A stretch of DNA of 260 nt from a phage: the sequence record X58668.1; one strand, 5' to 3'. Shown here piece after piece: positions 11 to 260 of this stretch. The notes under the pieces were generated by a model. It was given only the letters and a program-made list of their open reading frames with translations. It was not told where the DNA came from and searched no databases. The first letter of the stretch is position 1, and every line of letters starts with the position of its first letter. A program made the translations under genes and the position numbers.

Positions 11-40
11 AAAAAAGCATTGCTTATCAATTTGTTGCAA
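11..40 (+). promoter_or_regulatory. IHF binding site H' of attP: A-tract 11-16, consensus WATCAANNNNTTR at 25-37 (TATCAATTTGTTG).
   Basis: Seen in sequence: exact match to the IHF consensus at 25-37, with a 6-bp A-tract about one helical turn upstream. Established knowledge: the H' site used for the IHF-DNA co-crystal structure has this sequence (AAAAAAGCATTGCTTATCAATTTGTTGCA), recalled from memory. Confidence 0.85.
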
Positions 41-65: not shown

Positions 66-75
66 AAAATCATTA
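66..75 (+). promoter_or_regulatory. Int arm-type binding site P'3 (AAAATCATTA), the weakest match; overlaps the int stop codon
   Basis: Seen in sequence: degenerate match in the third tandem 10-bp register. Recalled as P'3 of lambda attP. The int TAA stop (complement of 73-75) lies inside it. Confidence 0.65.
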
Positions 76-237
76 TTTGATTTCAATTTTGTCCCACTCC
101 CTGCCTCTGTCATCACGATACTGTGATGCCATGGTGTCCGACTTATGCCCGAGAAGATGTTGAGCAAACTTATCGCTTATCTGCTTCTCATAGAGTCTTG
201 CAGACAAACTGCGCAACTCGTGAAAGGTAGGCGGATC
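73..237 (-). CDS. int: Lambda integrase Int (tyrosine recombinase), C-terminal fragment: residues 303-356 plus stop. The 5' part of the gene is replaced by non-lambda sequence from 238 onward.
   Basis: Seen in sequence: minus-strand translation of 237->73 gives DPPTFHELRSLSARLYEKQISDKFAQHLLGHKSDTMASQYRDDRGREWDKIEIK*, which matches the lambda Int C-terminus as I recall it. Active-site residues map to His308 (220-222), Arg311 (211-213), His333 (145-147) and catalytic Tyr342 (118-120). The stop TAA is the complement of 73-75. Identity to lambda ends at 237/238; lambda continues GGATCCCC.. (..SFEG|DPP), recalled from memory. Confidence 0.93.
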   Translation of the reverse strand, partial: DPPTFHELRSLSARLYEKQISDKFAQHLLGHKSDTMASQYRDDRGREWDKIEIK

Positions 238-260
238 TGGGTCGACCTGCAGGTCAACGG
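233..260. other. Synthetic cloning junction and polylinker: GGATCT (233-238; BamHI/BglII-type hybrid, keeps GATC), SalI GTCGAC (241-246), PstI CTGCAG (247-252) within SbfI CCTGCAGG (246-253), HincII GTCAAC (253-258).
   Basis: Seen in sequence: a dense cluster of 6-8 bp restriction sites forming a 12-bp palindrome GACCTGCAGGTC (244-255), starting exactly where lambda identity stops. Inference: the lambda BamHI end was joined to a compatible GATC overhang of a vector. The specific vector is not identified. Confidence 0.7.

Follow-up and report, generated by a model that had tools for sequence, protein, structure and literature searches.

Features of the locus

The DNA analysed here, referred to below as the window, is a stretch of 260 nucleotides from a phage sequence record (X58668.1). 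It consists of a segment of lambda att/int sequence (positions 1-237) and a visible flank of 23 bases (238-260), which ends after a GG. The features recognized in both parts are listed in Table 1.

The window starts two bases past the 15-bp common core of the attachment site (27724-27738, as annotated in NC_001416). Because it begins to the right of the core, the left partner, either a P arm or a B arm, lies outside the 260 bases. The lambda part contains the complete P' arm beyond the core, with identity to lambda right of the core, a putative IHF H' site (TATCAATTTGTTG, which fits WATCAANNNNTTR) and three predicted arm-type Int motifs, located together at about +33 to +84. The names C', H' and P'1 to P'3 are applied to these sites on the basis of established knowledge of lambda attP. 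A P' arm with IHF and arm-type Int sites is half of the intasome for Int-mediated recombination at attB, and the lambda part of the window, judged by its motifs, would supply half an att site for integration mediated by Int and IHF.

The lambda part also carries the 3' end of int on the minus strand. The int coding sequence occupies 27812-28882 in NC_001416, and the residues encoded in the window are thus 303-356, i.e. the last 54 of 356 codons, with the N-terminal 302 missing. The remnant includes the residues known as H308, R311, H333 and Y342. A C-terminal piece of 54 residues of a tyrosine recombinase cannot work alone, and the int fragment is an inert gene remnant without a biological role. 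An equivalent remnant in an engineered Escherichia coli record is annotated as 'incomplete; missing N-terminus'. The int frame on the minus strand is open across the end of the lambda part (VDLQVDPDPPTFHELRS...). When the read-through remnant (VDLQVDPDPPTF...) was compared with 5.8 billion predicted proteins, other int truncations only were retrieved, among them the DE3 junction in Vibrio natriegens but none with this junction, and an exact look-up of the 47-amino acid open reading frame gave no match. No RNA family was detected in the window with Rfam, and a promoter and terminator scan of the window gave nothing beyond chance.

Table 1. Coordinates of the features recognized in the 260-nt window
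Feature	Position	Strand	Basis
C' core-type Int site, remnant of lambda att	1-9 (lambda 27740-27748; +9 to +17 from core centre)	+	100% lambda identity
Putative IHF H' site, P' arm	25-37	+	consensus match
Predicted arm-type Int sites P'1 (46-55), P'2 (56-65) and P'3 (66-76)	46-76 (+54 to +84 from core centre)	+	motif positions, lambda identity
Lambda int 3' end, codons 303-356 (DPPTFHELRS...DKIEIK) and stop	73-237	-	translation, lambda identity
GGATCT, hybrid of lambda BamHI (G^GATCC) and a GATC-compatible end followed by T	233-238		alignment, restriction scan
TGG spacer between GATC and SalI	238-240		read from sequence; absent from pUC7-type polylinker (C there)
GG spacer	239-240		sequence
Polylinker-type sequence, SalI-PstI-HincII then GG	241-260		site scan, polylinker comparison
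SalI/AccI/HincII, GTCGAC	241-246		site scan
SbfI, CCTGCAGG	246-253		site scan
PstI, CTGCAG	247-252		site scan
HincII, GTCAAC	253-258		site scan

Distribution of the lambda segment

In a BLAST comparison with the phage collection, positions 1-237 aligned with lambda (J02459/NC_001416) at 27740-27976 with 100% identity, over exactly the interval that the initial annotation of this DNA had predicted. The same 237 bases are 100% identical in HK97, HK106, HK630, DE3 and other lambdoid phages and, in the plasmid collection, in some large plasmids. The lambda P' arm together with the int 3' end was found in 1,937 of 5,426 complete E. coli genomes, mostly in one copy each, and all but a few of these genomes (1,925 of 1,937) carry the segment at an identity of at least 99%. 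The att/int module is far commoner than lambda itself. Since positions 1-237 are shared widely beyond lambda, 'lambda' should be understood here as a lambda-type att/int module.

The records that are 100% identical to the lambda segment also include 'plasmids' assigned to Salmonella (NZ_CP082339.1, 48,502 bp), Stenotrophomonas (NZ_CP104294.1, 48,499 bp) and Paenibacillus (NZ_CP068597.1, 48,499 bp), as well as Campylobacter phage CJLB-4 (MW057783.1, 48,361 bp). These lambda-sized records look like lambda control DNA carried into assemblies.

The lambda identity ends at a BamHI site

The initial annotation had placed the end of the lambda identity at position 237. This agrees with the alignment, in which the window and lambda are identical through GGATC and then diverge completely (lambda GGATCCCCTTCGAAGG, window GGATCTGGGTCGACCTGCAGGTCAACGG). 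Position 233 corresponds to lambda 27972, the first base (G) of the int BamHI site. This is the sole BamHI site of the region, and the break lies precisely at its GATC. The substitution noticed earlier was seen both in the alignment and in the site scan: GGATCC at lambda 27972-27977 is GGATCT at 233-238 of the window. The GC content changes from 41% before the junction to 65% after it.

GGATCT in place of GGATCC, with lambda identity ending at GATC, is the structure of a compatible-end hybrid. It holds neither a BamHI nor a BglII site, whereas the Sau3AI/MboI/DpnII and BstYI/XhoII sites remain. BglII is only one possible partner, as a Sau3AI/MboI or BstYI end, or indeed any end with GATC and then T, would lead to the same hexamer. 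Moreover, GGATCT is found at this position as a point variant in E. coli strain 317 (NZ_CP023357.1), in a ybhC prophage with intact int and xis, and the lambda sequence continues after it; the C-to-T change at the BamHI site looks synonymous. Because strain 317 has a natural T at 238, GGATCT, or the loss of the BamHI site, is by itself no proof of a BglII join or of engineering.

The tail resembles a symmetric polylinker

The SalI, PstI/SbfI and HincII sites that had been reported downstream of the junction are all present, with the addition that a GG spacer separates GGATCT from SalI. Positions 241-258 form a palindrome at 16 of 18 bases, without a spacer. Positions 238-260 contain two palindromic hexamers, compared with 0.28 expected, and both abut. 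In the natural lambda, DE3 and E. coli prophage loci examined, no two palindromic hexamers abut, and in two engineered loci all abutting pairs but one lie in polylinker remnants. Such pairs turn up at a rate of about one per kb across 0.9 Mb of high-GC natural DNA, which corresponds to about 0.01 expected for the tail.

The layout is like that of the M13mp7/pUC7 polylinker (GTCGACCTGCAGGTCGACGG), with which positions 241-260 agree at 19 of 20 bases. This polylinker is symmetric (EcoRI-BamHI-SalI-PstI-SalI-BamHI-EcoRI), and the window ends before the second BamHI site expected from it. Its GTCGACCTGCAGGTC.ACGG has the same palindromic layout and adjoins GGATC, as in the window. In the GTCGAC-CTGCAG-GTCGAC palindrome of M13mp7/pUC7, 17 of 18 bases agree, the second SalI site being GTCAAC in the window and thus a site for HincII only. 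The two sequences also differ between GGATC and the first SalI site, where M13mp7/pUC7 has a single C and the window has TGG. The BamHI sites that flank the palindrome in M13mp7/pUC7 (GGATCCGTCGAC ... GTCGACGGATCC) have no counterpart on the left, where the window reads GGATCTGGGTCGAC. The tail would therefore be a derivative or relative of the M13mp7/pUC7 polylinker and not the polylinker itself. The reference polylinker string (CCCGGATCCGTCGACCTGCAGGTCGACGGATCCGGGGAATTC) was read in pTi_EHA101, a disarmed Ti plasmid, where it directly adjoins an aph(3')-Ia (kanamycin) cassette.

Both deviations could have arisen during cloning. The TGG spacer would be compatible with a BglII 8-mer linker (CAGATCTG), which gives GATCTG, placed next to a blunt end whose first base is G. 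GTCAAC could stem from the HincII half-site GTC fused to a blunt end that begins with AAC, or from a point change.

Known constructs that break at the same base

Breakpoints at the position seen in the window are known from two independent engineered loci, DE3 and an attP-vector integrant in a record of E. coli CFT073 (NZ_CP051263). The DE3 record opens at the att core and contains all of the 237 bases, including the 54-codon int remnant. Unlike the window, DE3 keeps GGATCC, followed by lacI, lacUV5, lacZ' and T7 gene 1, and has no polylinker. On the far side of gene 1 the lambda sequence takes up again at the GGATCC of this site, whereas the window covers the att side only. The D69-type design of DE3 is reportedly that of Mizusawa and Ward in 1982 and of Studier and Moffatt in 1986.

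The CFT073 integrant resembles the window in its P' arm, which likewise stops with GGATCT at this base, and in carrying the same int remnant beside the att core. From ybhC to ybhB, the insert consists of the att core, the int remnant, GGATCT, a pUC-type backbone, a NotI site, bla, an rrnB 5S/terminator segment, msbA, araC, the lambda P arm and again the att core. The lambda P arm starts exactly at the HindIII overhang (lambda 27479). Together with the GGATCT at the other end, this indicates that the vector carried the classical 0.5-kb HindIII-BamHI attP fragment, with its BamHI end joined to a BglII-type end. The joining of a BamHI end to a GATC-compatible end, as the initial annotation had proposed for the window, thus has a precedent at the very same base. 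However, the integrant continues after GGATCT with ATTCTTACTCCTAGATCTTCC, followed by the pUC-type backbone and bla, whereas the window continues with GGGTCGACCTGCAGGTCAACGG, so the CFT073 vector and the window are different constructs. We assume that the vector of the integrant is of the pLDR type.

A third group of constructs may be related. The left arms of lambda 1059/EMBL-type vectors presumably end at the int BamHI site, which in the EMBL series was probably destroyed by a BglII-type join followed by SalI. The arm end of EMBL3 would read GGATCTGGGTCGAC and so match positions 233-246. After SalI, EMBL3 would continue with GGATCC, whereas the window has CTGCAG. Searches of the literature on EMBL3/b189 and D69/DE3 yielded no description at the level of sequence.

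Searches across the junction

The whole window and the intervals 215-260, 221-260 and 226-260 were used as megablast and blastn queries against phages, plasmids and E. coli genomes. None of the records with the lambda part (42 phage records, 23 plasmid records and 1,937 E. coli genomes) shows the continuation of the window past 238. Position 238 is reached in two records only, that of strain 317 and that of the engineered CFT073. A natural lambda or lambdoid prophage contiguous with the window through 238-260, which would have spoken against a construct, was thus encountered in none of the phage, plasmid and E. coli collections. Exact scans with a 31-mer spanning the junction (GTDB species genomes and IMG/VR), with the 27-mer GATCTGGGTCGACCTGCAGGTCAACGG and a 21-mer (JGI metagenomes) and with the 21-mer and the 22-mer GGGTCGACCTGCAGGTCAACGG (IMG/VR) all gave zero matches. 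Positions 238-260 also had no exact match in any engineered record of the collections searched, and a full-text literature search with the junction string, the polylinker strings and possible arm primers returned nothing useful.

Two further candidates were rejected. An IS or transposon end at 238 is at odds with the lack of a match in any E. coli genome, and a Gateway att site does not fit because Gateway sites have mutated cores and a much shorter P' arm.

Origin of the junction

As the lambda sequence ends at a BamHI site and polylinker-type sequence follows, the locus is, with little doubt, an engineered construct, in which a lambda attP arm, cut at BamHI, is joined to a polylinker by an ordinary cloning junction. 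The initial annotation had come to the same view of the locus, and it is sustained by the end of the identity on the BamHI site, the two constructs that share the break and the polylinker match at 19 of the 20 bases of the tail. The junction is of a well-known kind, already explained, and holds no new biology.

Regarding the enzymes used, the polylinker family and the use of the construct, we infer the following course of events. Positions 1-237 would represent the BamHI end (27972) of the classical lambda HindIII(27479)-BamHI(27972) attP fragment or, just as well, what lies to the left of DNA inserted at this BamHI site of int, as in phages of the D69/DE3 type. Ligation of this BamHI end to a compatible GATC end with a T behind it, for which BglII is the simplest source, would have given a GGATCT hybrid that neither BamHI nor BglII can cut. 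Next to it would come a synthetic polylinker with SalI, PstI and HincII sites, belonging to the symmetric M13mp7/pUC7 type. The fragment may have been carried as the att-bearing piece of a vector for cloning or integration; alternatively, it may have formed the att-proximal side in an int::insert phage. In either case the polylinker would mark the start of the cargo DNA, and the junction has no biological role.

Several observations count against an origin by engineering with a polylinker. There is no exact engineered match for 238-260; TGG stands for C and GTCAAC for GTCGAC in the comparison with pUC7; the visible flank is 23 bases long; the 20-mer occurs naturally in high-GC nagA-like genes; and T occurs naturally at 238. 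The occurrence of the 20-mer GTCGACCTGCAGGTCAACGG (241-260) in at least 120 species genomes, almost all of high GC content, where it encodes the conserved motif PG[F/L/Y]VDLQVNG, shows that it is not exclusive to vectors; the copies listed from the GTDB species genomes were all natural and of the NagA type. The construct could therefore be engineered in another way, the flank being the start of a Sau3AI, MboI or BglII fragment of a high-GC gene for a NagA-type amidohydrolase, cloned in a lambda BamHI vector as in a genomic library. The weak BLAST matches of the tail are to genes annotated as nagA or amidohydrolase, and a Sau3AI fragment in a BamHI site likewise gives GGATC followed by any base. 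However, the window encodes VDLQVNG after Ile-Trp (ATC TGG) and so departs from the PG[F/L/Y]VDLQVNG motif; among the 120 natural copies listed, TGG is found at that place in none, and almost every copy encodes Gly and then Phe, Leu or Tyr (GGN TTC/CTG). The absence of the 27-mer from the JGI metagenomes and of the 22-mer from IMG/VR also speaks against a NagA-type fragment. Both the 16/18 palindrome and the 19/20 polylinker match would then be coincidences, and we see no reason for a NagA-type gene beside lambda int except as a cloned insert. We consider this origin of the flank improbable, and if it were right, the locus would still be an engineered clone.

An origin without cloning is harder still to reconcile with the data. 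In a natural setting, a rearrangement or the insertion of foreign DNA would have cut int short here in a lambdoid prophage with a natural GGATCT variant. Strain 317 indeed has GGATCT at this position, and other kinds of truncated int remnants are common in E. coli. In strain 317, however, the lambda sequence goes on after the T, and not one of the 1,937 E. coli genomes that carry the segment has the continuation of the window. The breakpoint coincides with the BamHI site to the base, as it does in the two known constructs, and the flank is built of abutting restriction sites. A GGATCT prophage that lost the 5' part of int to a high-GC insertion, starting in a NagA-like gene and by chance at the BamHI site, seems to us very unlikely. 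Hardly any more credible is an artefact in silico, that is a chimeric assembly or an untrimmed read in which lambda control DNA is fused to an adapter or vector and to which no physical molecule corresponds. Lambda DNA plausibly contaminates public records, given several 48.5-kb 'plasmids' and one 'Campylobacter phage' 100% identical to the segment. Nevertheless, a random chimera would not break on the GATC of BamHI with a clean compatible-end hybrid, and the join is built like a ligation product. These comparisons favour an attP arm cloned through its BamHI end next to a polylinker.

Reading of such junctions in public genomes

As the locus is recombinant, nothing downstream of 237 should be scored as a phage or bacterial novelty, and the sequence past this position should be treated as vector or cargo DNA. 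Laboratory constructs in public genomes can be recognized reliably by a lambda int remnant ending at GGATC, as exemplified by DE3, by DE3-derived cassettes in Vibrio natriegens and by attB integrants in records of 'wild-type' strains. Annotation pipelines call such remnants partial integrases.

Many of the at least 120 genomes with GTCGACCTGCAGGTCAACGG (SalI, PstI and HincII sites) belong to Actinomycetota. Natural copies of this 20-mer are a possible source of false 'vector' calls made from restriction-site strings alone.

The RefSeq 'complete genome' of E. coli CFT073 (NZ_CP051263.1; intervals 828803-835040 and 835000-838000) contains a laboratory insertion at attB, between ybhC and ybhB. 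Its bla gene is of the TEM type and it includes a copy of msbA; the int remnant is annotated as a partial integrase pseudogene, and the 5S segment of the vector as an rRNA gene. On a 3.26-Mb contig of V. natriegens, a 78-amino acid 'tyrosine-type recombinase/integrase' is the lambda int remnant read through the BamHI junction of DE3 (...GVRDLDPPTFHELRS...). By its sequence, this protein indicates a probable DE3-derived T7 RNA polymerase cassette in that genome.
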